From Archangiaceae bacterium (GTDB taxonomy: Bacteria > Myxococcota > Myxococcia > Myxococcales > Myxococcaceae), in NCBI GenBank assembly GCA_043750125.1, contig JAYVCD010000389.1, positions 1 to 21,838 on the forward strand: a stretch of 21,838 bases of DNA. The letters are read 5' to 3'. Positions within the stretch are counted from its first letter, which is position 1; every line of letters starts with the position of its first letter. The notes under the pieces were generated by a model. It saw only the letters and a list, made by a program, of their open reading frames with translations. It searched no databases and was not told the origin of the DNA. A program made the translations under genes and the position numbers. Below, piece by piece: positions 1-17,682 of this stretch.

Positions 1-12
1 CTTGTCACTCAT
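1..12 (-). CDS. 5' end (MSDK...) of probable SctU/FlhB export switch protein, truncated by window edge
   Basis: Reverse complement of 1-12 is ATGAGTGACAAG. The ATG overlaps the sctT stop (ATGA). MS(D/E)K resembles the start of FlhB/SctU proteins, and this position follows fliR/sctT. Only 4 codons are visible. Confidence 0.55.
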
Positions 13-797
13 CGCGCCCGCCCGATGAAGGAAGTGAGATCCAGTGCGACCCCGTGCGAGAGCAGGCGTTCCATCACCACTCCAATCCCCAGCCACGTCA
101 CGGCGCCGCCGGCCAGGATGCGCAGCGGCGCCCCGGTGTCTTGAAGGTTCATCGCCGGCGAGCCGCGAGAGATCAGCCCAAGCAGACAATCGACGGCCAG
201 CGAGGCCGCGGCCACCGGAGCGCCGACCGCGAGACCCACCGCGAAGGCCGTCCCAACCAGGGCCGCGATCTGCAACACGACCGATTCACCCGAGACGTAC
301 GCACCCAGGGGAACGAGCGCAAAGCTCTTGAAGATCGCGCTCAGGATGAGGGGCATCACGGTTCCGCCCGCGGCCATGGCGATCAGCAATTGGTAGAGCA
401 CATCGCCGGTCGCAGATTCCTTGCTGTTCGCCCAGGGCAGCGCGGCTTCCGCTGAGCTGCCGCGGAAGAGATCGATGAATCGGCCGCCGATGCGAGCGGC
501 ATCGAAGGGAAGGGCCGAGATCAAACCCAGGGCGAGGCCGAACGTGACTTCTTTTCCAGCCCGCTGAGCAAACGTCAGCACGTCGGGTACGGGGCCTTCG
601 CCGCCGACGCCCGCCGAAAAATGAAGGAAGCCCGCCAGCGCCAACACCAGGGAAAGTTTGACGAAGGTGGGCGCCGACGACCCGCCCAGCAGGGGGCAAC
701 AGAAGGCGATCGGCAACAAGCGCGCGCTGCACAACGCAATCGCGACCAGGTGCGGCGCGAACGCTTTCAAATCGCCGTCAAAGTTGATCGGGTTCAT
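9..797 (-). CDS. sctT: Type III secretion export apparatus protein SctT (FliR/EscT/YscT family), ~262 aa
   Basis: Hydrophobic multi-TM protein with ARLLPIAFCCPLLG, KEVTFGLALG, GRFIDLFRG, KSFALVPLG and LLGLISRGSPAMN segments typical of FliR/SctT. Start moved to ATG 797, which overlaps the sctS stop (ATGA). Confidence 0.9.
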   Translation of the reverse strand: MNPINFDGDLKAFAPHLVAIALCSARLLPIAFCCPLLGGSSAPTFVKLSLVLALAGFLHFSAGVGGEGPVPDVLTFAQRAGKEVTFGLALGLISALPFDAARIGGRFIDLFRGSSAEAALPWANSKESATGDVLYQLLIAMAAGGTVMPLILSAIFKSFALVPLGAYVSGESVVLQIAALVGTAFAVGLAVGAPVAAASLAVDCLLGLISRGSPAMNLQDTGAPLRILAGGAVTWLGIGVVMERLLSHGVALDLTSFIGRAR

Positions 798-1063
798 GAG
801 ACCACGCTGGGCAACGCCATCAACAGTTGGGTCGTGAACCGGGTCAACTGGTCCGCGATCCATGGGCCCGCAATCACCAACCCCAGCACCGAGGCGCACA
901 GCTTCGGCACCACCGACAACGTGCTTTCCTGGATCTGGGTGGTGGCCTGAAACAGGCTCATCACGAAGCCGACCGCCAAGCTCGACAGAATCGGGGGCAA
1001 CGAAGCCAGCACCATCAGCAGCAGCGCTTCGCGACCCAGGCTCAGCAGAATCTCTTGACCCAT
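794..1063 (-). CDS. sctS: Type III secretion export apparatus protein SctS (FliQ/EscS family), 89 aa
   Basis: Signature SLFQATTQIQESTLSVVPKL, size, and position between sctR and sctT. Confidence 0.95.
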   Translation of the reverse strand: MGQEILLSLGREALLLMVLASLPPILSSLAVGFVMSLFQATTQIQESTLSVVPKLCASVLGLVIAGPWIADQLTRFTTQLLMALPSVVS

Positions 1064-1786
1064 CTATCGGTAGCCGAGGATCAGACCGCGAGAGAGCAGC
1101 GCCCAGCCGTCGACGGCAACGAAGAGCAGAATCTTGAACGGCATGCTCACCTGGCTCGGTGAGAGCGTTTGCATTCCGAGCGCGAGCAGGACGTTCGCGA
1201 CCAGCATGTCGAGCACCAGAAACGGCAAGAAGATCAAAAAACCGATGATGAAGGCTTCTTTGAGCTCGGTGAGCACGAACGCGGGGATGATCACTGTCAA
1301 ATCTTCTTCGGACACCGACTGGGCGTCCGACTCGGGCCGAAGCTCGCGGGCCATGTCGGCGAACCGGACCCGCTCATCGGGGTTCCCGTGCTTGATCAGG
1401 AATTCGCGCATCGGCAGCGCCACGGTGCTCGCCGATGAGATCAATTCTTTCGTGGTCGCGCTTTCGCTGTAGGCGTCTTTTCCCGCTGCGTACATCCGTT
1501 CCATCACCGGGGCCATGATGTGGGCGCTGAGCACCGCGGCGAGCCCGGTCAGCACCATTGTCGGCGGCGCCTGCTGCGTGCCCAGTGCTGAGCGCGCAAT
1601 CGAGAGCACCACCACAATCTTCGAGAAGCTGGTGAGCATCACGATCGCGAACGGAATCAGGGCCATCAACGCCAGCAGGCCCATCATCGGAAGGGGCGAG
1701 CTGGCCATCGACATCGGCTCGACTTCCACCGCCTTCGCAAGCGCCACCGAAGGGCCCAGAACGCCCATGATGCCCAGGGCTTTCAT
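1064..1786 (-). CDS. sctR: Type III secretion export apparatus protein SctR (FliP/EscR family), 240 aa
   Basis: Motifs TSFSKIVVVLSIARSALGTQQAPP, PAFVLTELKEAFIIGFLIFLPFLVLDMLVANVLLALGM and PFKILLFVAVDGW. ATG overlaps the upstream stop. Confidence 0.96.
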   Translation of the reverse strand: MKALGIMGVLGPSVALAKAVEVEPMSMASSPLPMMGLLALMALIPFAIVMLTSFSKIVVVLSIARSALGTQQAPPTMVLTGLAAVLSAHIMAPVMERMYAAGKDAYSESATTKELISSASTVALPMREFLIKHGNPDERVRFADMARELRPESDAQSVSEEDLTVIIPAFVLTELKEAFIIGFLIFLPFLVLDMLVANVLLALGMQTLSPSQVSMPFKILLFVAVDGWALLSRGLILGYR

Positions 1787-2196
1787 CGATCACCTTCCGG
1801 GACGAACTTTGGCAGGCTGTCGGTCACCCTCTGAGCCCGGCCTGACTTCTTGTCCTGCGGTGCGGAGATCACCGCATAGCCCTCGCCATGGACCACCAGA
1901 AACGAAGTGCCGTCGATGTCGACCAGCGCCAGCCCGGTCTTCGGAGCCAAACCCTCGCGGCAGACGACCGACATTCGCGGCGCGATCTGAAACCGGGCCA
2001 CCGCGGACCCCTTCTGCGTGCGCAACCACCAGAATCCGAGGCCGGCGAACGCGGCCACGGTGAGTGCCGCGCGGGCCACCGCCGCTGCAGAAATGCCGTG
2101 CGTGGTGGCGATCGCCAGCAGGCAGGCCAGCGCGATGCAGGCGAGGAGCAACTTCTTCCTCGGGCTCATTTTCGTCTCTGCCCCAAAGGCGCTCAT
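1783..2196 (-). CDS. fliO: FliO-like membrane protein, 137 aa
   Basis: N-terminal TM segments, then MSVVCREGLAPKTGLALVDIDGTSFLVVHGE, resembling the FliO cytoplasmic beta domain (l.vle...Lg.k..l.lv.v.g..fLvg). Occupies the fliN-fliO-fliP position, with ATGA overlaps on both sides. Confidence 0.7.
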   Translation of the reverse strand: MSAFGAETKMSPRKKLLLACIALACLLAIATTHGISAAAVARAALTVAAFAGLGFWWLRTQKGSAVARFQIAPRMSVVCREGLAPKTGLALVDIDGTSFLVVHGEGYAVISAPQDKKSGRAQRVTDSLPKFVPEGDR

Positions 2197-2432
2197 TTCA
2201 GGAGCCCAATGATCCGAGCGCCAATCTCGCCCTCGATGTCCACCAGCTCGGCGCGCGCCACCGCGCGATCACCGACGCGGAGCGTCACCGGTTCGGTCGC
2301 TCCAATGCGCAGTGACAGAACCGCGCCGGGACGCAGGGTCGCCAGCTCGCTCACACTGATGCGCAGCCGGGTGAGCTCGACTTCGACCTCGACCGGAAGG
2401 GAAGGGAAGCTGGCGTCGTCTTTGAGTTTCAT
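2193..2432 (-). CDS. Putative internally initiated SctQ C-terminal product (FliN-like SPOA2, 79 aa)
   Basis: In-frame ATG at 2432 preceded by AGGAG (2439-2443) with a 6-nt spacer, just before the last SPOA domain. Confidence 0.55.
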   Translation of the reverse strand: MKLKDDASFPSLPVEVEVELTRLRISVSELATLRPGAVLSLRIGATEPVTLRVGDRAVARAELVDIEGEIGARIIGLLK

Positions 2433-3371
2433 TTTCGGCTCCTGGGGAAGAGAGGTGGCTTCGGTTTCTGCGCGGGTCAGGGTGAAGCCCTGAGGCGAAA
2501 AGTGGCCATGCAGCTCGAAGGTAGACGTCACCAGCCGGGCGGGGCCGGACAGCGGGCCAGCGCCGGCTGCGACCGCGCCGAGCATCACTACGTCGCCCAA
2601 TTGCAGATGTGACAGGTCGCCGGCATCGAGCACGCACCGGCCGAAGAACGTGCGCATCGTGATTCTTGCCGCCAAAATTTCGGGGGCAATCTCCGTCGGC
2701 AGGTGTTCTTCGAGTGAAGCGATGGCGCTGTCACACCCAGGCGCCGGGAGCAACAGTCGGGCAGTTCCGAGGCTCTCGCCCACCTGCACCGTCAGCTCGA
2801 CCGCAACGTGGCGCACCCGGCAGTCGACGCGCTCGAGAATTTCGCCTCGCTCGATGTACACCGCGAGCAGCCGGGGCCCAAAGTGCTTGTGCAACAGCTC
2901 GACCTTGCGAATGCACGCCAGGCTCAGCAAACACAGCCAACCCAAAGCCGCCTCTTCGACCTGGGTCAGGCGGGTGGGAACCGACGTCCGCGCAGGGCTT
3001 CCCGCAACTTTTGCCAGCAGGACGTTGAGCGTGAGCAGGTCGAGCTCGACGACTGCCAGCTGCCCGAGCGTTCCCAGCTCGATCAACGCGAAGGCAGAGA
3101 AGCGCGACAGCCCTCCAAACGGATTGATCGCCGCGTCAACCACCCGGGCCTGCACCCGGACTTCCGCGCCCAACGACAAGGTCAGCTGTGCCGCGATCTT
3201 CGCCAGGGCGTCCTGACCTGCCTGCCCGACCGAAGGGCGGCGTGCGAGGTTCAGATGCGCCCGGGTCAAGCGACGGGCGGTGTTGCGCTTGAACAGCGAA
3301 ATTCGGCGCGTCGATGTGACGCGTTTGCTGTTCTGGCTCGATTGGGTGGTGACCGTCTGCGCTTCGAACAT
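2193..3371 (-). CDS. sctQ: Cytoplasmic ring / sorting platform protein SctQ (FliM/FliN SPOA domains), ~392 aa
   Basis: Two SPOA-like regions (FGRCVLDAGDLSHLQLGDVVML; VEVELTRLRISVSELATLRPGAVLSL...VARAELVDIEGEIGARI) and a FliM-middle-like segment (RLTQVEEAAL). ATG 3371 preferred over 3443; the start is uncertain. Confidence 0.88.
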   Translation of the reverse strand: MFEAQTVTTQSSQNSKRVTSTRRISLFKRNTARRLTRAHLNLARRPSVGQAGQDALAKIAAQLTLSLGAEVRVQARVVDAAINPFGGLSRFSAFALIELGTLGQLAVVELDLLTLNVLLAKVAGSPARTSVPTRLTQVEEAALGWLCLLSLACIRKVELLHKHFGPRLLAVYIERGEILERVDCRVRHVAVELTVQVGESLGTARLLLPAPGCDSAIASLEEHLPTEIAPEILAARITMRTFFGRCVLDAGDLSHLQLGDVVMLGAVAAGAGPLSGPARLVTSTFELHGHFSPQGFTLTRAETEATSLPQEPKMKLKDDASFPSLPVEVEVELTRLRISVSELATLRPGAVLSLRIGATEPVTLRVGDRAVARAELVDIEGEIGARIIGLLK

Positions 3372-3379
3372 GCCTGGCT

Positions 3380-3406
3380 CCACTTCACGGGGCTTGCCAG
3401 ACTCAA
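3380..3406 (-). promoter_or_regulatory. Sigma54-like (-24/-12) promoter motif upstream of sctQ
   Basis: Minus strand TTGAGTCTGGCAAGCCCCGTGAAGTGG: TGGCAAG-N4-GTGA, i.e. GG-N10-GA. 21/27 identical to the motif at 5798-5824. Confidence 0.5.
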
Positions 3407-3456
3407 CCCCGGGCAACGATGGACAACCCGCCCCACGAGGCATCCGCTCTTACGGA

Positions 3457-3909
3457 CTACCGGGTGGCTTCGCGGATGAGGCGCTGGGCGAGCTCTTCCA
3501 TCGCCGGGGCCACGGTGAGCTCGCTGCGCAATTCGAGGCTCGGGAAGAGCGAACGCTGCCAGGGGGCCAATCGGCGGTAGATCGCCAGTCGCATCGTAGG
3601 GCTGGCTGCGAACAGCAGGTCCTTGAGCCTGTTCGCCGCGTCGGGCTGGACGCCAAACGCGACGGCCATGCGGCCCTGGCGGGTTGCAGAGTCCCAGCTG
3701 CGGGCATCGACGGCGCAGGCCGTCGCGCGCTTGAGCGACCCGCCGCTCAAACCTGAAAGGAGCTCGGCCGAGTTGACCCGATCGACTCCGCTGACGAACA
3801 ACGCGAGCCGTTCGGCGAACCCTCGCGAGGCCGAATCAGCCCACGCAGGCCTGGGGCTTCGAATGACGAACGTCGGCTCGGGGTGGGTCGGCTCGTTGTC
3901 GCGGGCCAT
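3457..3909 (-). CDS. Hypothetical T3SS protein at the sctK/fliG position, with a FliG armadillo-motif-like segment, 150 aa
   Basis: Directly downstream of sctJ in the operon. LALFVSGVDRVNSAELLSGLS resembles the FliG ARM pattern (IALILSYLD...AA.IL..LP). Confidence 0.55.
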   Translation of the reverse strand: MARDNEPTHPEPTFVIRSPRPAWADSASRGFAERLALFVSGVDRVNSAELLSGLSGGSLKRATACAVDARSWDSATRQGRMAVAFGVQPDAANRLKDLLFAASPTMRLAIYRRLAPWQRSLFPSLELRSELTVAPAMEELAQRLIREATR

Positions 3910-3917
3910 GACGGCTT

Positions 3918-4745
3918 TTACGCCACCCGGCGCTGCACGCTGGGATTCACCACCAGCCGCTGCGGCGTGGTGATGGCCTTCGGGGTGAGCACCGGAAGCG
4001 TGGGAACTGTCGGCTCGGTGAGTCCGGTCGGCCGCGCAGGCTTGCGCCGCAGCTTCAGACCCATCACCACCAGCGCAGTGGCGAGGGCACTGAGCGACAA
4101 GCCCATCGCGACCACCACCACCCGAAGCTTGTCGCCCGTGGCCGCCAGGACCACCGGGGCGCTCACCTGGGTCGTGACGGGGTCAATCAGCACCACCACA
4201 TCGTCGGCCTTCAGCCCTTCGACCGAGGCCGCAATCAACGCGCGGATGGCACCGGTCTGTTGCTGAAGCCGCTCGAGAGCGACCGGATGAGCGCGAATCA
4301 ACGCCGAGGCTTTGGATGGCAGCAGCGCTTGACCCGGACGGCTGGGCGCGGGGACCGCCAGCTCGATTCCCGCCGATGCGACCCCGTCCATTCCTTCGAT
4401 CATCTGCTCGATGTCCCCCTCGAGCGCTTCCATCTGGCGCAGCCTTTCGGCGCTCGGGGTCTCGATCAACGCGGTTTGCGACGTGACTTCACGGGTGGTG
4501 GTCCGCGGGGGCCTCGGCAATTTCAGCTCGGTCAGAACCCGCAGAGCGTCGGTGGCGTGATCCTCATCCAGCTCGATGGCCCAGGTGGGCTTCTTGCTTT
4601 TTTCCAGCACCTTCCTCGCATCGAAGCCGCGGCTGACCAGCGCCGAGATGGCTTCATTGGCATCGCGCTCGTCGAGCCCATGTTGAATCTGAGACCGGCA
4701 ACCACTGGCGAAGAGAACGAGGACGGCGATTGCGCAACGGTTCAT
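3918..4745 (-). CDS. sctJ: Inner-membrane ring lipoprotein SctJ (YscJ/EscJ/PrgK family), ~275 aa
   Basis: Lipoprotein signal MNRCAIAVLVLFASG-C; IQHGLDERDANEAISAL, ETPSAERLR, LEGDIEQMIEGMDGV, SKASALI and LIAASVEGLKADDVVV; C-terminal TM followed by KLRRK. GAGG RBS before ATG 4745. Confidence 0.92.
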   Translation of the reverse strand: MNRCAIAVLVLFASGCRSQIQHGLDERDANEAISALVSRGFDARKVLEKSKKPTWAIELDEDHATDALRVLTELKLPRPPRTTTREVTSQTALIETPSAERLRQMEALEGDIEQMIEGMDGVASAGIELAVPAPSRPGQALLPSKASALIRAHPVALERLQQQTGAIRALIAASVEGLKADDVVVLIDPVTTQVSAPVVLAATGDKLRVVVVAMGLSLSALATALVVMGLKLRRKPARPTGLTEPTVPTLPVLTPKAITTPQRLVVNPSVQRRVA

Positions 4746-4762
4746 TGAAGGCCTCTGGAGGA

Positions 4763-5236
4763 TCAAATCTGGGTCTGGAGGATCTGCTTCACGCCGCCGG
4801 TCGCCTTCTCGATCACCTTTCCGGCCAGGTCGAGCTCCTGGCTCGCGCGGTACATCTGCGACTGCAGTGAAAGAAGCTCACCCGGCGTAAACGACTTTCC
4901 CGATTGAGCCAGCTGCAGCACCGATTCCATGCGCTTCTGCGCCGCCGCCACCTGGTCGATCATCTGCGTCGGCTCGAGCGCTTTGAGCGGCTGGCTCACC
5001 TGCAGTGCCCCCGCCCCGTGCACTCGGGACTGGCCCGCGGCCGCCCTCGTCTTTGCGTCGGCCCGTTGCGAAGTCTGGACCTTGAGCACTGCCCGCTCGC
5101 CCCGGGGCTGGGCCACCGGCGGCCCCTGCGTCGAGGCTTTGAACGTCTTGCTGAACTGCGGCGGGCCTGACTTCTGCGAAGGGCCGGACCCGCTGATGCC
5201 TCTGAAGCTCGCCGCGCCTATGCCCTGGATGGCCAT
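4763..5236 (-). CDS. Putative T3SS inner rod / needle adaptor (SctI, YscI/PrgJ/HrpB2-like), 157 aa
   Basis: C-terminus FTPGELLSLQSQMYRASQELDLAGKVIEKATGGVKQILQTQI fits the SctI pattern (P..LL..Q........eL..K...K....v..L...Q). Lies immediately upstream of sctJ. Confidence 0.7.
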   Translation of the reverse strand: MAIQGIGAASFRGISGSGPSQKSGPPQFSKTFKASTQGPPVAQPRGERAVLKVQTSQRADAKTRAAAGQSRVHGAGALQVSQPLKALEPTQMIDQVAAAQKRMESVLQLAQSGKSFTPGELLSLQSQMYRASQELDLAGKVIEKATGGVKQILQTQI

Positions 5237-5246
5237 GGTGGGCCCT

Positions 5247-5762
5247 TCAGCGGATGTTGTTGATGGCGGCCTTCGCCGAGTCGTGACGCAGCTTCAAGAT
5301 GTTGGTGAGGGTGTTGTACTCACGGCTCTCGGTCTGCATCTGCATCTGCACCATCATCGAGCGGTCGGCCTCGGCCCGCATTCCCGACAGCATGTCGGTC
5401 ATTCCCGCCGGCTCGACGCCCGAGGTTGCTGCGGACCCGCCCATTGACCCGCCGGCGACCGTACTGCCGACCGCCATGCCCCCCGCTGCGCTACCCGACC
5501 CATGGCTCGAAGATCCGCCGGTGAGGTTGAGCAGTCCACTGGCGGCTGAGCTGCTGCGAACGGACGAAGGGCTGTTGACCAGTGAAGAGACCGCGGACAC
5601 TGCGCTGCTGATGATCGGCATTCCGGTCAGCCCGCCGACCACCGACCCCGCGCGCAGAACCCCGCTCAGCGAGTTGTTGAGCACCTGGCCGAAGTCGTTC
5701 TTCGGAGTCTGACGCGCGAGCGTCGGGGTGATGGAAATGCGGGCGAGGTGGGTGTTGTCCAT
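5247..5762 (-). CDS. Putative T3SS needle/filament subunit (SctF-like C-terminus) with Ser/Gly-rich extension, ~171 aa
   Basis: C-terminus MVQMQMQTESREYNTLTNILKLRHDSAKAAINNIR resembles needle-protein C-terminal helices (PrgI ends ...SNTVKVFKDIDAAIIQNFR). First gene of the F-I-J-K order. GGAG RBS 7 nt before ATG 5762. Confidence 0.6.
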   Translation of the reverse strand: MDNTHLARISITPTLARQTPKNDFGQVLNNSLSGVLRAGSVVGGLTGMPIISSAVSAVSSLVNSPSSVRSSSAASGLLNLTGGSSSHGSGSAAGGMAVGSTVAGGSMGGSAATSGVEPAGMTDMLSGMRAEADRSMMVQMQMQTESREYNTLTNILKLRHDSAKAAINNIR

Positions 5763-5797
5763 TTGCGGGCTCCGGTGAAGTGGGTTGTGGCAGGGAC

Positions 5798-5824
5798 CCA
5801 TTTCAGGAGGCGTGCCGCACTCAA
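5798..5824 (-). promoter_or_regulatory. Sigma54-like (-24/-12) promoter motif upstream of the T3SS operon
   Basis: Minus strand TTGAGTGCGGCACGCCTCCTGAAATGG: CGGCACG-N4-CTGA, i.e. GG-N10-GA. Lies in the 100-bp intergenic gap and is repeated at 3380-3406. Confidence 0.55.
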
Positions 5825-5862
5825 GCGGCCGAGAACACGGCAACTGGCGAGGCGGGGGAGTC

Positions 5863-7101
5863 TCAGGGGGGAGATGGACGGGGCGGCGAATTCGGATCGA
5901 AGAAGTCGATCAACCCTTCGCGCTGGGCGTGAGCGTCTTCCATCGCCAGGTCGATCAACGCCCGCGCGTAGTCCCCATCGAACAGCAGGTAGCTGGCCAG
6001 ATCGGCCGACGAGAACAGCTGGCTGCGGGTCAGCCGCTGCAACATCCGGGTGGGAAAGCCCGACTTGTCGTTCACCAGGTTCTTGGCTTTGGCCTGTACC
6101 GCAGCCAGCTCGCCGAGATCTTTCGAAGGTCGAATCACCAGGTCTTTCACCCGCCGGTAGGGCTGGCCACGCATCTGGCTGACGGTCTGGTTCATCTTGG
6201 GCAAGAATTCGGGGCCGAAGGTCTGCGCGCCAGTGTCGAGAATCGCGTTGAACCGCCGCATTCGATCGAGGTCGTACTCGGTGTGATCGAGCATCAGGGC
6301 ATTGAGTACTTTGCCCATCAGCACCGGAGTCGAAGGGTAGCTGGTCATCGGCGCAGGCGCAGCCATCGGGCCCGGCGCGCGGTACCGCAGCGATAAGATC
6401 AGCACCCTTTCGGCCCCCAGGCGCAGCGCAGGCGACAGCGGGGTGTTCTGCCGGACGCTGCCGTCGCAGAAGTACTCCTCGCCGATCTTCACCGCCTTGA
6501 AGAGCATCGGAATCGCGGCAGAGGCCAGCGCATGCTCGGGGCCCAGGACCGCCTCTCGGGCCTCGGTGAAGGGGTCGCGGCTCCAGGGAGGCACGCCTCC
6601 TTCCTTCCGCTGCACGAAGACGACGGTCTTCCCATCGACAATGCGGGTGGTCGAGACCGACAGCGCGCTGAAGTTTCCGCGCGCGAGGTTGGCCGAGATG
6701 CGCGGCCAGGAAATCTGGGTGCGCACCATCTCTTCCAGCGGCGCCAGGTGCAGCAGGTCGTAGATTCTCCAACCGTCCGGGCGATCTTCTTCGCGCGCCA
6801 GGTTCCAGATTTTCCGGGTGATGGTCCACAGGTCTTCCCCGTCGACCCGGTAGACCTTCTCGAGCTGAAGCCCGGTCCAGAACGACGAGAGGATTTTCCC
6901 CTGCTCGCTGGGGATCTCGGCGCTGGCAGCCAGAAAGCAATTGGTGATCGCTCCGACCGAGGTGCCGCACAGCACGTCGAAATGAACGTGGGGCCGCACC
7001 GACGCGGGCAGCTCTTCGCGCAGGTACCGAATGATCCCGGCCTCGTAGGCGCCGCGGGCACCTCCGCCAGAGCAGACCAACGCAGTCGTAGGAGCGGGCA
7101 C
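5863..7101 (-). CDS. Patatin-like phospholipase family protein, 412 aa
   Basis: Oxyanion motif SGGGARG, nucleophile elbow GTSVG (GxSxG), ASAAIP and catalytic DGS. Confidence 0.92.
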   Translation of the reverse strand: MPAPTTALVCSGGGARGAYEAGIIRYLREELPASVRPHVHFDVLCGTSVGAITNCFLAASAEIPSEQGKILSSFWTGLQLEKVYRVDGEDLWTITRKIWNLAREEDRPDGWRIYDLLHLAPLEEMVRTQISWPRISANLARGNFSALSVSTTRIVDGKTVVFVQRKEGGVPPWSRDPFTEAREAVLGPEHALASAAIPMLFKAVKIGEEYFCDGSVRQNTPLSPALRLGAERVLILSLRYRAPGPMAAPAPMTSYPSTPVLMGKVLNALMLDHTEYDLDRMRRFNAILDTGAQTFGPEFLPKMNQTVSQMRGQPYRRVKDLVIRPSKDLGELAAVQAKAKNLVNDKSGFPTRMLQRLTRSQLFSSADLASYLLFDGDYARALIDLAMEDAHAQREGLIDFFDPNSPPRPSPP

Positions 7102-7131: not shown

Positions 7132-7155
7132 GCGACCGCAAAAGTTGCGACCGCA
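7131..7155. repeat. Perfect 10-bp direct repeat TGCGACCGCA x2 (5-bp spacer); each copy is quasi-palindromic
   Basis: TGCGACCGCA at 7131-7140 and 7146-7155, in the divergent patatin/PilZ intergenic region. Confidence 0.8.
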
Positions 7156-7210
7156 CCCTCGTGATCCACACTGCTTCAGGCCTGTCACTTCATTCCCAGG
7201 AGTCGCACCG

Positions 7211-7534
7211 ATGCAGACGATGACCGGAACCGCCGTTTCCACCCGCTATCACCCCCGGGTGGGCGCGCACCTGATGGTGAAGCTGAAGCTCAACGGGCGA
7301 GCGGTCTCAGCCCGGTCGACCGACCTTTCGATGGCGGGGCTGTGCCTTCAAGGCGAGTTCCCCGAGCTGGCCGACTTGGTGACCCTGGCCATTCCCCTGC
7401 CCGACGACAAGCAGCTCGTCACCGAGGCGAAGGTGAAGTGGCGCGAAGCAGGAAGGGTGGCGCTCGAGTTCGCCGAGCTCGACTGGGAAGACATGTTCGC
7501 CCTCGCCCGGTTTCTGCACCCGCTGCTGCCCTAG
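7211..7534 (+). CDS. Stand-alone PilZ domain protein (probable c-di-GMP receptor), ~107 aa
   Basis: RxxxR (RYHPR) and DxSxxG (DLSMAG) motifs; AGGAG RBS before ATG 7211. Confidence 0.88.
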   Translation: MQTMTGTAVSTRYHPRVGAHLMVKLKLNGRAVSARSTDLSMAGLCLQGEFPELADLVTLAIPLPDDKQLVTEAKVKWREAGRVALEFAELDWEDMFALARFLHPLLP

Positions 7535-7923
7535 TCTTTGCCGACCCGCGCGGCCCGAAGCCCGGCGACCAAATCGAGCAATTCGGCGCCCCGAAACGGC
7601 TTGTGGATGTAGCCGTTGGCGCCTGCGCGGGTCGCGGCTTCCACGTCGGACTTCTTCGCCTTGGCGGTGAGCATGTGCAGGGGCACGGCCGCCGTCGAAG
7701 GGTCGGCCTTGAGCAGGCGGCACACGGTGATTCCGTCCATCTGGGGCAGCACCACGTCGAGCAGAATCAAATCGAATCTCGAGGTGCGGGCGAGCTTCAG
7801 GCCTTCGATCCCGTTGGCCGCACACTCGACCTCGACTCCGTCTTCGGTGAGCATGCTCCGCACGAGCTCACGAATGACTGGCTCGTCCTCGACCACGAGG
7901 ATGCGGAAAGGCTCAGAGCTCAT
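7531..7923 (-). CDS. Single-domain response regulator (CheY-like receiver), 130 aa
   Basis: ILVVEDE, phospho-acceptor LILLD, MLTA and KPF motifs; no output domain. Confidence 0.93.
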   Translation of the reverse strand: MSSEPFRILVVEDEPVIRELVRSMLTEDGVEVECAANGIEGLKLARTSRFDLILLDVVLPQMDGITVCRLLKADPSTAAVPLHMLTAKAKKSDVEAATRAGANGYIHKPFRGAELLDLVAGLRAARVGKD

Positions 7924-15720: not shown

Positions 15721-16730
15721 GGAAACACCCGGAACACCGTGGCGCGCAGCAGCAATTCGAGCGCGAGCAACACGAAGGCCCACACCAGCAGGTCGTGAAA
15801 GTCTTCCCGGTAGGTGGTGGTGGCTCCGCCGTCCATCAGCTTGGTGCGCTCGAGCGAATCGAGAATTTCCTGCAGCCCCTTCTTCAGGCTCTCGCGATCC
15901 GTCGCCCGGAAATACTGCCCCCCGGTCTGTTTGGAGATGGTCTGCAGCAGCTCGGGGTTGATCGGAATGTCTACGTCCCGCCAGCTGGTGTTCCCGAACA
16001 GATCCAGCCCGGCGGGGAAGGGCACCTTGCCTCCCTTGCCCACGAGAATTGTGTAGATGGGAATCTTCAGCGCCTGGGCCATCGCCGCGGCGTCCAGGGG
16101 CGAAATCTTGCCGGCGTTGTTGTCGCCATCGGTGATCAGCACCACCACCCGGCTCTTCGCGTCCGAGTCGCGCAGCCGGTTGAGCGACGTGGCGAGCGCG
16201 TCCCCAATCGCCGTGCCGTCTTCGAGCACCCGGGTGCGCAGCTGCTTGACGACTTCCTTCAGCACCGAATAGTCGAGCGTCAACGGAGCCTGGGTGTACG
16301 CGGCCCCCGAAAAGACGACCAGGCCGATTCGGTCGTTGCTGCGGGCGCCGAGAAACTCGACCAGCACTTCCTTGGCGACGTGAAGCCGGTTCTGAGGCCG
16401 GAAGTCGGCGGCTTCCATCGAGGTCGACAGGTCGAAGGCGATCATGATGTCGATGCCTTCGACCGAGAGATCTCTCACCCGGGCGTCGCGTTCCTGGGGG
16501 CGGGCCAGCGCGAGGATCGCCAGGCCGATTCCCAGCGCCCGCATCACCGGCAAGAGCCACATCAGCCACGGACGAATTCCCCGCCCGTGGGCCACCAGCG
16601 CCGCGGCGGCAGAAAACCTAAGCACCGCGCGTCGCTTCCGCTCGACCAAAGCCCAGGCGAGGATCAGCGGGACCCCCAGCAACAGCCAGAGCGCCTGCGG
16701 GCTATTGAAGTGGGTCAGGTCGTTTGGCAT
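15717..16730 (-). CDS. batA: BatA-like VWA domain membrane protein, ~337 aa
   Basis: FNSPQALWLL N-terminus, ALARPQ, MIDAS DLSTSM, PLTLDY, GTAIGDAL, LITDGDNNAG, TGGQYFRA. Confidence 0.9.
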   Translation of the reverse strand: MPNDLTHFNSPQALWLLLGVPLILAWALVERKRRAVLRFSAAAALVAHGRGIRPWLMWLLPVMRALGIGLAILALARPQERDARVRDLSVEGIDIMIAFDLSTSMEAADFRPQNRLHVAKEVLVEFLGARSNDRIGLVVFSGAAYTQAPLTLDYSVLKEVVKQLRTRVLEDGTAIGDALATSLNRLRDSDAKSRVVVLITDGDNNAGKISPLDAAAMAQALKIPIYTILVGKGGKVPFPAGLDLFGNTSWRDVDIPINPELLQTISKQTGGQYFRATDRESLKKGLQEILDSLERTKLMDGGATTTYREDFHDLLVWAFVLLALELLLRATVFRVFP

Positions 16731-17682
16731 TGGCCGGCGCAGGCGCAACGAGGGCAGGGGTGGTCGCGGTGACGGCGCGATAGGCGAATTCCAGCGAAGC
16801 TTTGCACTCGTCCGGGGAAGGGGTCGCTTTGGCGTACTTGGCCAGGTCTGACTCGAAGACGAACGCGGTCAGCTCTTTCATCTGCAGCCCGGGGGTGTGC
16901 AGCGTGCGCAAGCTGTCGAGCAGCTCGGACGAGGTGCTCTCGAGCGCTTCGAACGCGTACCGTTCGCCGAGGTAGCTGCGCAGAATTTCCGAGAGAAAAA
17001 AGTAGAATTCGCGCGAACGGCCGGCACCGGGAAGATCTTGTGCGCGCAGCCCATCGAGTGCGGCGATCGCGCGGACGTGCAGGGCCTCGGGCGCTTTCGT
17101 CGCGACCCCTGCAATCGGCCGCGGTCGTTTCAGATATTTGTAGAGCGCGTACCCCATCGCGGCGCCGGCGATCAGCCCGGCGAGAATCACCACCAGGCGC
17201 CAGGTGCGAATCGGCACTTCCTGGGGAGGACGCACTTCGAACAATCCGGCTCCTTTCTGGGCCGCGTCGGCGGGCAGAGTGCTGAGCACCTCGAGGTTCA
17301 CCCCGGGCGCGGTGAAGTTCCCGACCGTCGCGCCTTCGAAGACTTCGAAAATGAAGGGCGGCGTCTTCTGCTTGCCCATCGCGAAGGCGGCCATCTTCAA
17401 ATCGAAGGTGGTGGTTGAAGACTCCGGCCCGTCGACCCGCGAGCGCGCAGACTCGAGCAGATCGAAGTCCCCCAGGTCGCCCGGGGTGCGCAGATCGACC
17501 CGCTGTCCTTTGTCGTGGGTGATCACCGCCTGCACCACGAACGGCTCTCCCAACTGCACCTGCTCGGGAATCGCGCGCACCAGCACCTGGCGGGGGGGCG
17601 CCAATGTCCCCGCGTCGGTCTGCGCGAAGGCAGCCATGGCGCTGAGCAGAAAAACGAGGAGCGGGGCCTTGACGGACGACAC
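16702..17682 (-). CDS. Bat-operon membrane protein (Ig-like domain + TM + helical DUF4381-like C-terminus), ~326 aa; start uncertain (17682 or 17718)
   Basis: Signal peptide, VQLGEPF Ig-like start, TM, then FYFFLSEILRSYLGERY...ALESTSSELL...SDLAKYA, the pattern of the conserved gene that precedes batA. Confidence 0.75.
   Translation of the reverse strand: MSSVKAPLLVFLLSAMAAFAQTDAGTLAPPRQVLVRAIPEQVQLGEPFVVQAVITHDKGQRVDLRTPGDLGDFDLLESARSRVDGPESSTTTFDLKMAAFAMGKQKTPPFIFEVFEGATVGNFTAPGVNLEVLSTLPADAAQKGAGLFEVRPPQEVPIRTWRLVVILAGLIAGAAMGYALYKYLKRPRPIAGVATKAPEALHVRAIAALDGLRAQDLPGAGRSREFYFFLSEILRSYLGERYAFEALESTSSELLDSLRTLHTPGLQMKELTAFVFESDLAKYAKATPSPDECKASLEFAYRAVTATTPALVAPAPANAKRPDPLQ

Follow-up and report, generated by a model that had tools for sequence, protein, structure and literature searches.

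Putative sigma-54-type promoters with A at position -12 ahead of both halves of a compact type III secretion-like cluster in Myxococcaceae

Introduction

Sigma-54 (RpoN) of Myxococcus xanthus reads promoters of the consensus TGGCACG-N4-TTGC(T/A), as given in the portions of two published studies considered here (PMC7910581, PMC9765219). In the considered portion of the former, the hallmark GC is described as typical and not obligatory: the characterised promoters of asgE, spi and nla6 differ from GC or GG by a single base, MXAN3778 has GA at -24, and many of the sigma-54 promoters of this species are intragenic or operon-internal (PMC7910581). Here we analyse two sites of this type in a stretch of DNA of 21,838 nucleotides (nt) from an Archangiaceae bacterium of the Myxococcaceae (assembly GCA_043750125.1, contig JAYVCD010000389.1, positions 1 to 21,838), hereafter the window. 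The two sites, termed P1 and P2, precede the two halves of a compact gene cluster that resembles type III secretion systems (T3SSs), and both are putative sigma-54-type promoters with A in place of the hallmark C at -12.

Compared to the consensus, the two sites share the GG at -25/-24 in a GGCAC(G)-type box, the T at -14, the G at -13 and the fixed spacing, and the genome possesses rpoN as well as activator genes. They differ in having A for C at -12 and A for T at -11, family-wide, and in the start codon of P2, which sits at the predicted transcription start. Like asgE, spi, nla6 and MXAN3778, they come from a bacterial family in which one hallmark base may differ in a working promoter. By contrast, the example spelled out among these M. 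xanthus deviants, in the portion of the source considered, alters the GG at -24 and not the GC at -12, and none of the deviants given there concerns a T3SS-like cluster.

In plant pathogens, HrpR/S act on the sigma-54-driven hrpL, the product of which reads hrp-box promoters. Compared to this arrangement, the sigma-54-type sites of the present cluster directly precede structural genes, and no hrp-box-like pattern was seen. More generally, sigma-54 has been tied to type III secretion in Pseudomonas syringae, Erwinia, Chlamydia trachomatis and Yersinia, according to the considered part of PMC12316311. In M. xanthus, a needleless system named T3SS* (MXAN_2434-2464) comprises SctD, SctN, SctL and LcrH-like chaperones; in the part of the paper considered here, its effectors are called unknown and the regulation of its genes is not described (PMC10433427). 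This published content appears to fit a second, larger cluster of the present genome (contigs C132 and C284) better than the compact, ATPase-less cluster of the window. In the considered portions of the literature searched, which included PMC12316311, PMC11804543, PMC12075869 and PMC10433427, we found no account of sigma-54 promoters at either of the T3SS-like clusters of myxobacteria.

On comparative evidence, the finding appears to be a well-supported variant of a known promoter type. Its interest lies in the conserved A at -12, in a predicted leaderless transcript and in a handle on the regulation of an uncharacterised secretion-like cluster of predatory myxobacteria. The sites point to the sigma factor that would read the compact cluster, and they suggest two transcription units. 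Moreover, the natural, family-wide replacement of the hallmark -12 C, beside orthologous canonical versions, offers a comparison for the role of the -12 base, and the start-codon geometry suggests that the sigma-54 promoters of this family often yield leaderless mRNAs.

Two sites in the major gaps of the cluster share a sigma-54 layout

Site 1 (P1, TTGAGTGCGGCACGCCTCCTGAAATGG) occupies positions 5798..5824 and site 2 (P2, TTGAGTCTGGCAAGCCCCGTGAAGTGG) positions 3380..3406, both on the minus strand. The two 27-mers are identical at 21 of 27 positions, both read GG-N10-GA and both lie in the sense orientation. When both gaps were subjected to 2000 mononucleotide shuffles, no ungapped 27-mer pair agreed at more than 19 positions, a value reached in seven shuffles, and the observed identity lies beyond this maximum. 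P1 sits in a gap of 100 nt, from the stop codon of a patatin-like gene at 5863 to the ATG of geneA at 5762, and P2 in a gap of 85 nt, from the stop codon of geneK at 3457 to the ATG of sctQ at 3371. These two gaps are the sole sizeable ones between positions 9 and 5862, all other junctions being overlaps or at most 10 nt. The original prediction was thus accurate in coordinates, strand and degree of match, as well as in the placement, orientation and GG-N10-GA layout that it had described.

A search of the whole assembly on both strands retrieved all 21 shared positions at these two sites only. The next-best sites were one with 17/21 and 14 with 16/21, compared to 25 at 16 and none above for the reversed-pattern control. 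The 27-bp motif had also been put forward as a tool for finding the regulon genome-wide and as a route to its effectors. Neither expectation was upheld, as there is no third copy, with 17/21 as the next best, and no effector with the motif was found.

The functional core appears to be a stretch of 16 bases, YGGCA-N7-TGAA, in sigma-54 layout (GG-N10-GA), rather than the full 27-mer. The core of P1 is CGGCACG-CCTCC-TGAA (5802..5817, minus strand), with the GG of -25/-24 at 5816-5815, TGAA at 5805-5802 and the A of -12 at 5803. The core of P2 is TGGCAAG-CCCCG-TGAA (3384..3399, minus strand), with the GG at 3398-3397, TGAA at 3387-3384 and the A of -12 at 3385. Both sites have the GG at -25/-24 within a TGGCAC-like box (CGGCACG at P1 and TGGCAAG at P2), and both keep the 10-base spacing from the GG to -13/-12. 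The conserved blocks lie 5-6 nt apart, unlike the 16-18 nt of sigma-70-type promoters, which argues for a sigma-54 reading.

With a probability of about 0.8, judged from sequence, both sites are sigma-54-type promoters, one for each half of the compact T3SS-like cluster. This had been the central claim of the original prediction, two sigma-54-like promoters with GA at -12, and it holds on comparative evidence, the spacing of GG and TGAA being conserved at both sites in dozens of loci. The TGAA variant seems to be maintained by selection in the family and not to result from decay.

Upstream of the core, this genome does carry the shared TTGAGT to which the prediction had drawn attention, yet in relatives conservation is partial and confined to the leading TT. 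At site 1, T occurs at -33 in 36 of 57 loci and at -32 in 36 of 57; the corresponding figures at site 2 are 20/41 and 29/41. In the window this TT lies about 6 nt 5' of the GG, at 5823-5824 and 3405-3406. The genome's 19 canonical TGCT sites show no counterpart of it (3/19 and 5/19), and it may represent a class-specific upstream contact.

The first site exchanges with a canonical promoter among relatives

Loci were gathered around the SctJ homologues of related genomes, and 62 distinct loci remained after eight duplicates had been dropped. Sixty of them contained the site-1 region and were searched with the strict pattern GGCA-N7-TG[AC]. Of the 60 loci, 57 had the pattern at the orthologous place, 30-40 nt ahead of geneA; 48 of these read TGAA, with AA as the -12/-11 pair, and nine read the canonical TGCT, with CT as the pair. 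Among eight other -12 tetramers counted at the same spacing, seven occurred in no locus and TGGA in three. As a control on the spacer, TGAA with spacers of 5, 8 or 9 was found in 0-2 loci. Matches with a spacer of 6 were rejected as conserved coding sequence of the patatin C-terminus and geneA. Outside the selection pattern, conservation extends to C at -21 (48/57) and to G at -20 (47/57), and most flanking columns are variable.

The distance to the downstream gene is also regular. A start codon preceded by a Shine-Dalgarno (SD) sequence lies 33-43 nt past the -12 tetramer in 48 of the 57 loci and 19-31 nt past it in five; in the remaining four, no pair of SD and start codon was found within the stretch examined. 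Moreover, in another family of the same taxonomic order, CGGCACG-N4-TTGCT or GTGCT stands at the orthologous place in all four loci (L155, L156, L157 and L159). That the canonical form swaps in at the orthologous place is the strongest single argument for site 1 as a sigma-54 promoter.

The second site abuts the start codon of sctQ

Site 2 was counted in 51 geneK-sctQ regions, four more having been skipped with an interval above 700 nt. GG-N9-TGAA occurs in the sense orientation ahead of sctQ in 41 of these 51 regions. With spacers of 7, 8, 10 and 11, the pattern was found in 2, 3, 2 and 4 loci, respectively, and on the antisense strand in five; twelve other tetramers at the site occurred in 0-8 loci each. 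Among the columns outside the selection, T at -26 and C at -23 are each conserved in 37/41 and G at -20 in 31/41, which extends the likeness to the -24 box of sigma-54 promoters. In addition, GGCACG-N5-TGAA precedes sctQ in three loci of two further families (L153, L154 and L158).

Had sctQ translation started at 3443, the second copy of the motif would be nothing but coding sequence, an outcome that the original prediction had named as fatal. Two observations speak against that start: the SctQ proteins of relatives align from residue 1 of the version starting at ATG 3371, and 10 of 34 relatives have an in-frame stop codon at most 45 nt upstream of the sctQ ATG, which in those genomes places the motif outside the coding sequence of sctQ.

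The sctQ ATG lies 12-15 nt past TGAA in 33 of 41 relatives. Relatives with a more distant ATG (L018, L022, L025 and L063) carry a GGAG-type leader. Several relatives have no SD-like sequence in the stretch from TGAA to ATG, as judged by eye and without a tally; in the genome studied here, GGAG stands 6 nt ahead of the ATG. The distance to the ATG, combined with the usual sigma-54 geometry, puts the predicted transcription start at the start codon or 1-3 nt ahead of it, so that the sctQ mRNA would be leaderless or nearly so.

A similar geometry occurs at canonical sites of this genome. Within 150 nt of a called gene start there are 84 GGCA-N7-TGC sites, and 12 of them have their GG 27-29 nt before the start codon, compared to about two predicted by a uniform spread; the gene starts came from a crude GC3-based caller that missed geneA and sctS, and these counts are indicative. 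The offset of P2 is 27 nt. Examples of canonical sites at 27-29 nt are C2:555(+), C112:38361(+), C208:4537(+), C290:2222(+) and C401:4621(+). The pattern suggests a class of sigma-54 promoters in this genome that would yield leaderless mRNAs. A literature search on leaderless transcripts turned up no M. xanthus study; the point could still have been published.

Sigma-54 machinery and genome-wide signal

The genome contains one rpoN, with a single Sigma54_DBD match (on C457). Sigma54_activat gave 50 matches at E <=0.001, 41 of which reach E <=2.8e-40 and are strong matches to enhancer-binding ATPases (EBPs). A full-length rpoN match was obtained in 41 of 41 family genomes searched (40/40 without G074), three of which also have a partial second match. 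A T3SS-specific second sigma-54 was not found in these 41 genomes, the extra matches being partial and confined to the three. With a single full-length rpoN, it is unlikely that a second sigma-54 is devoted to such sites, and one sigma-54 would have to read both TGAA and TGCT sites.

In upstream regions, TGCT after GGCA was observed 41 times against 16.2 expected, and TGAA 12 times against 13.9. After GGCAC-N6, the corresponding figures are 22 against 4.3 for TGCT and 6 against 3.7 for TGAA; TGCT is enriched and TGAA is not.

A position weight matrix of the TGAA core gave 14 genome matches at or above 18 bits, compared to four in a reversed-genome null, and most of them lie within coding sequence. 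Sites were also found ahead of genes for CBS-domain, Zn-peptidase and PEGA-domain proteins. Two candidates were discarded: a site on C431 ahead of a response-regulator/histidine-kinase gene is not conserved there in seven relatives checked, and a match at the head of C132 falls inside the open reading frame (ORF) of the sctN-like ATPase or on its edge.

Proposed mechanism

We propose that at each site the sigma-54 holoenzyme binds GG (-25/-24) together with TG (-14/-13), and that an EBP then opens the complex. By sigma-54 geometry, with the start 12 nt past the -12 base, P1 would initiate an mRNA near 5791 on the minus strand for geneA, sctI, sctJ and geneK. This transcript would have a leader of about 29 nt, with a GGAG ribosome-binding site at 5773-5770 and the ATG at 5762-5760. 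P2 would serve as an internal promoter, with a predicted start at 3373 on the minus strand, two bases before the sctQ ATG, and would yield a leaderless mRNA for sctQ, a gene of 137 amino acids (aa), sctR, sctS, sctT, sctU and sctV.

Weighing the promoter reading against its alternatives

Several observations weigh against two sigma-54 promoters. The hallmark GC at -13/-12 (TTGCW) is absent, both sites of the window having GA, with the T at -14 and the G at -13 present. TGAA is not the general -12 box of this genome, and the genome-wide sigma-54 signal does not vouch for it. The strict pattern was not found in three of the 60 site-1 loci (L017, L033 and L079) nor in 10 of the 51 site-2 regions, L079 (Citreicoccus inhibens M34) having neither of the two strict patterns, and many relatives have a weak -24 box at P2, only 16 of 41 keeping the A at -22. 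Neither the window nor the 20-kb locus annotated in one relative contains an EBP gene. A comparison of 42 loci, made for a shared activator motif, revealed no 7-mer common to the regions upstream of P1 and P2 above a coding-region control; these regions are themselves coding, which masks weak motifs. Moreover, the related loci are kin, so that the counts overstate independent support, and the coarse gene calls behind the start-codon statistics weaken that line of evidence as well.

One alternative accepts P1 as a real sigma-54 promoter and takes P2 as inactive. The cluster would then be one operon read from P1, and P2 a binding site or a relic, for example one that pauses or insulates read-through. 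The scan of 3200-6000 for terminators agrees with such an operon, its one terminator-like site being on the plus strand and none on the minus strand between the cluster halves; so do the -24 box of P2, weaker than that of P1 among relatives, and the GGAG before the sctQ ATG, which could serve translation off a long mRNA. We nevertheless consider an inactive P2 unlikely. TGAA has been retained with the exact spacing to GG in four fifths of the loci (41/51), and the short distance from TGAA to the ATG, shared by most relatives, is the geometry of the genome's own canonical promoter-like sites near start codons. In addition, several relatives show no SD-like stretch, and a GGAG leader appears where the ATG is more distant. 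The motif might instead be the operator of a dedicated regulator that reads TTG-N5/6-GGCA-N7-TGAA, with a partial and coincidental likeness to sigma-54 promoters. The missing C at -12, the lack of genome-wide enrichment of TGAA and the TT at -33/-32, partly conserved at both sites and not in the canonical TGCT sites, would fit such an operator. It is quite improbable, given that a full canonical sigma-54 promoter occupies the orthologous P1 place in nine loci of the family and four of another, that the conserved positions are the sigma-54 contacts (GG, then C, A, T and G at -23, -22, -14 and -13, respectively) at sigma-54 spacing, and that the motif is neither palindromic nor repeated, unlike most operators.

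A promoter farther upstream would place both sense-oriented copies within the transcript, so the motif could also act in the mRNA, as a structure or protein-binding site that governs translation or stability of the downstream gene. The gap around site 1 indeed folds somewhat better than its shuffles (z -2.19), whereas that around site 2 does not (z -0.45), and the two predicted folds put the motif in different places. No Rfam match at E <=1 was obtained at either site, the only match being on the other strand at 5574-5631 with an E of 0.25. Furthermore, the distance from motif to start codon differs (about 40 versus 12 nt) while the internal spacing is fixed, and we regard an RNA element as very improbable. 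Least credible is a functionless similarity that arose by chance between GC-rich gaps or by local duplication. The presence of only two copies in the genome would agree with it, but none of the 2000 shuffles reached 21/27, the core is conserved across many genera while its flanks vary, and SctJ identities of 40-80% argue against the loci being recent copies of each other. A promoter of the sigma-70 type, of the extracytoplasmic function (ECF) class or of the hrp-box type was rejected, as only 5-6 nt separate the conserved blocks, there is little information at positions -10 to -5 and a sigma-70 consensus scan of 3200-6000 found no promoter-like site.

Other conserved candidate promoters without C at -12

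The reduced core led to two further conserved promoters with a base other than C at -12, ahead of a giant-protein gene and of a gene for a PilT-like ATPase. The giant-protein promoter (C380) reads GGCA[CT]G-N5-TG[AT]A and lies 12-16 nt before the ATG in 11 of 11 loci, with TGAA in eight and TGTA in three. A TTG comparable to that upstream of P1 and P2 precedes this promoter in the genus studied here. The giant protein is encoded by a single ORF of 2408 aa in one relative (genome G012, L136:2466-9692(-)). In the present genome (C380:12124-13257(+) and downstream; L137:3125-8450) it consists of 377 aa followed by 1327 aa in a different frame, a split that may be a frameshift or an assembly error. 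The protein has no Pfam family, and its matches in a protein atlas are only weak look-alikes with Zn-ribbon domains.

Ahead of the PilT-like ATPase gene (C346:1946-3139(-); loci L140-L152), GGCAC-N6-TGNN occurs in 10 of 13 loci, and no site was found in the other three. The tetramer is TGTA in five, TGCG in two, and TGAA, TGAT and TGCT in one each. The ATG lies 12-14 nt past the site in nine loci; L149, which has TGCG, carries an SD-bearing leader of 23 nt. The assignment of this 397-aa protein as PilT-like was judged from its N-terminal sequence alone. Nothing ties either the giant-protein gene or the PilT-like gene to secretion.

C, A and T thus interchange at -12 in orthologous promoter sets of the family. 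A bolder proposal is that TGAA and TGTA sites, with a non-C base at -12 and A at -11, form a distinct functional sigma-54 subclass in Myxococcaceae. The altered fork-junction contact at -12 would have been selected for special control, through a dedicated activator or co-factor touching the TT at -33/-32 or through a lower need for an activator; such promoters would often be fused to the start codon and yield leaderless mRNAs, and the compact cluster would share one regulon with at least the giant protein and the PilT-like ATPase. We hold this proposal as doubtful.

Gene content of the compact cluster and its surroundings

The assembly comprises 6.17 Mb in 460 contigs, with 65% G+C and a completeness of 89%, and the window is the entire contig C389. 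On the minus strand, the genes follow the order patatin-like, geneA, SctI-like, sctJ, geneK, sctQ, 137-aa gene, sctR, sctS and sctT, and the gene order of the compact cluster is maintained in the related loci compared.

The patatin-like phospholipase gene (5863..7101, minus strand; PF01734) adjoins P1 upstream, the site lying about 40 nt past its stop codon, and its placement 5' of the cluster is kept among relatives. A patatin match upstream of the cluster was seen in 18 of 35 related loci, many of which are too short to reach that far. The first gene past P1, geneA (5247..5762, minus strand), encodes 171 aa without a Pfam family, and its C-terminal part is conserved among relatives. It is followed by an SctI-like inner-rod gene (4763..5236, minus strand), which has a weak Pfam match (PF17001, E 0.0094, under the curated cut-off); among the 35 related loci compared, tblastn detected it in 34. 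Next come sctJ (3918..4766, minus strand), which encodes a YscJ/FliF-family lipoprotein (PF01514, E 7.4e-17), and geneK (3457..3909, minus strand), the last gene ahead of P2, with 150 aa and no Pfam family; geneK was detected by tblastn in 28 of the 35 loci.

Past P2 lies sctQ (2193..3371, minus strand), which encodes a FliN-type C-ring protein (PF01052) and starts at the ATG of 3371, not at 3443. The other members of the predicted second operon in the window, all on the minus strand, are the 137-aa gene (1783..2196) and three genes assigned by Pfam, namely sctR (1064..1786), sctS (794..1063) and sctT (9..899). The operon runs on with sctU and sctV, which are located on contig C381. No ATPase gene belonging to the compact cluster was found in the window or in the annotated 20-kb orthologous locus.

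Upstream, the cluster is flanked by a PilZ-domain gene at 7145-7534 on the plus strand and a stand-alone response-regulator receiver gene at 7531-7923 on the minus strand. In one relative (L037), the neighbourhood of the cluster includes a fusion of a Ser/Thr kinase with a solute-binding domain as well as two PilZ genes, and a gene for an HU-like DNA-binding protein is convergent to sctV. The PilZ, receiver, kinase and HU-like genes are possible regulatory partners of the cluster, with no EBP among them.

A second T3SS-like cluster in the genome

The second, larger T3SS-like cluster of this genome extends over C132 (12900-24554) and C284 (1-7000). It encodes an SctN-like ATPase, YscO-like and FliK-like proteins, a FliM/FliN-type SctQ, SctR, SctT, SctU and SctV, together with several TPR proteins, a second SctJ and a FliG_C-like protein. 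No convincing site of the TGAA type was seen at the gene starts of this second cluster. Just downstream of its sctU-like gene (16443-17462, minus strand of C132), a short second match to the C-terminal part of FlhB/SctU (profile positions 255-335) lies at C132:16141-16380(-).

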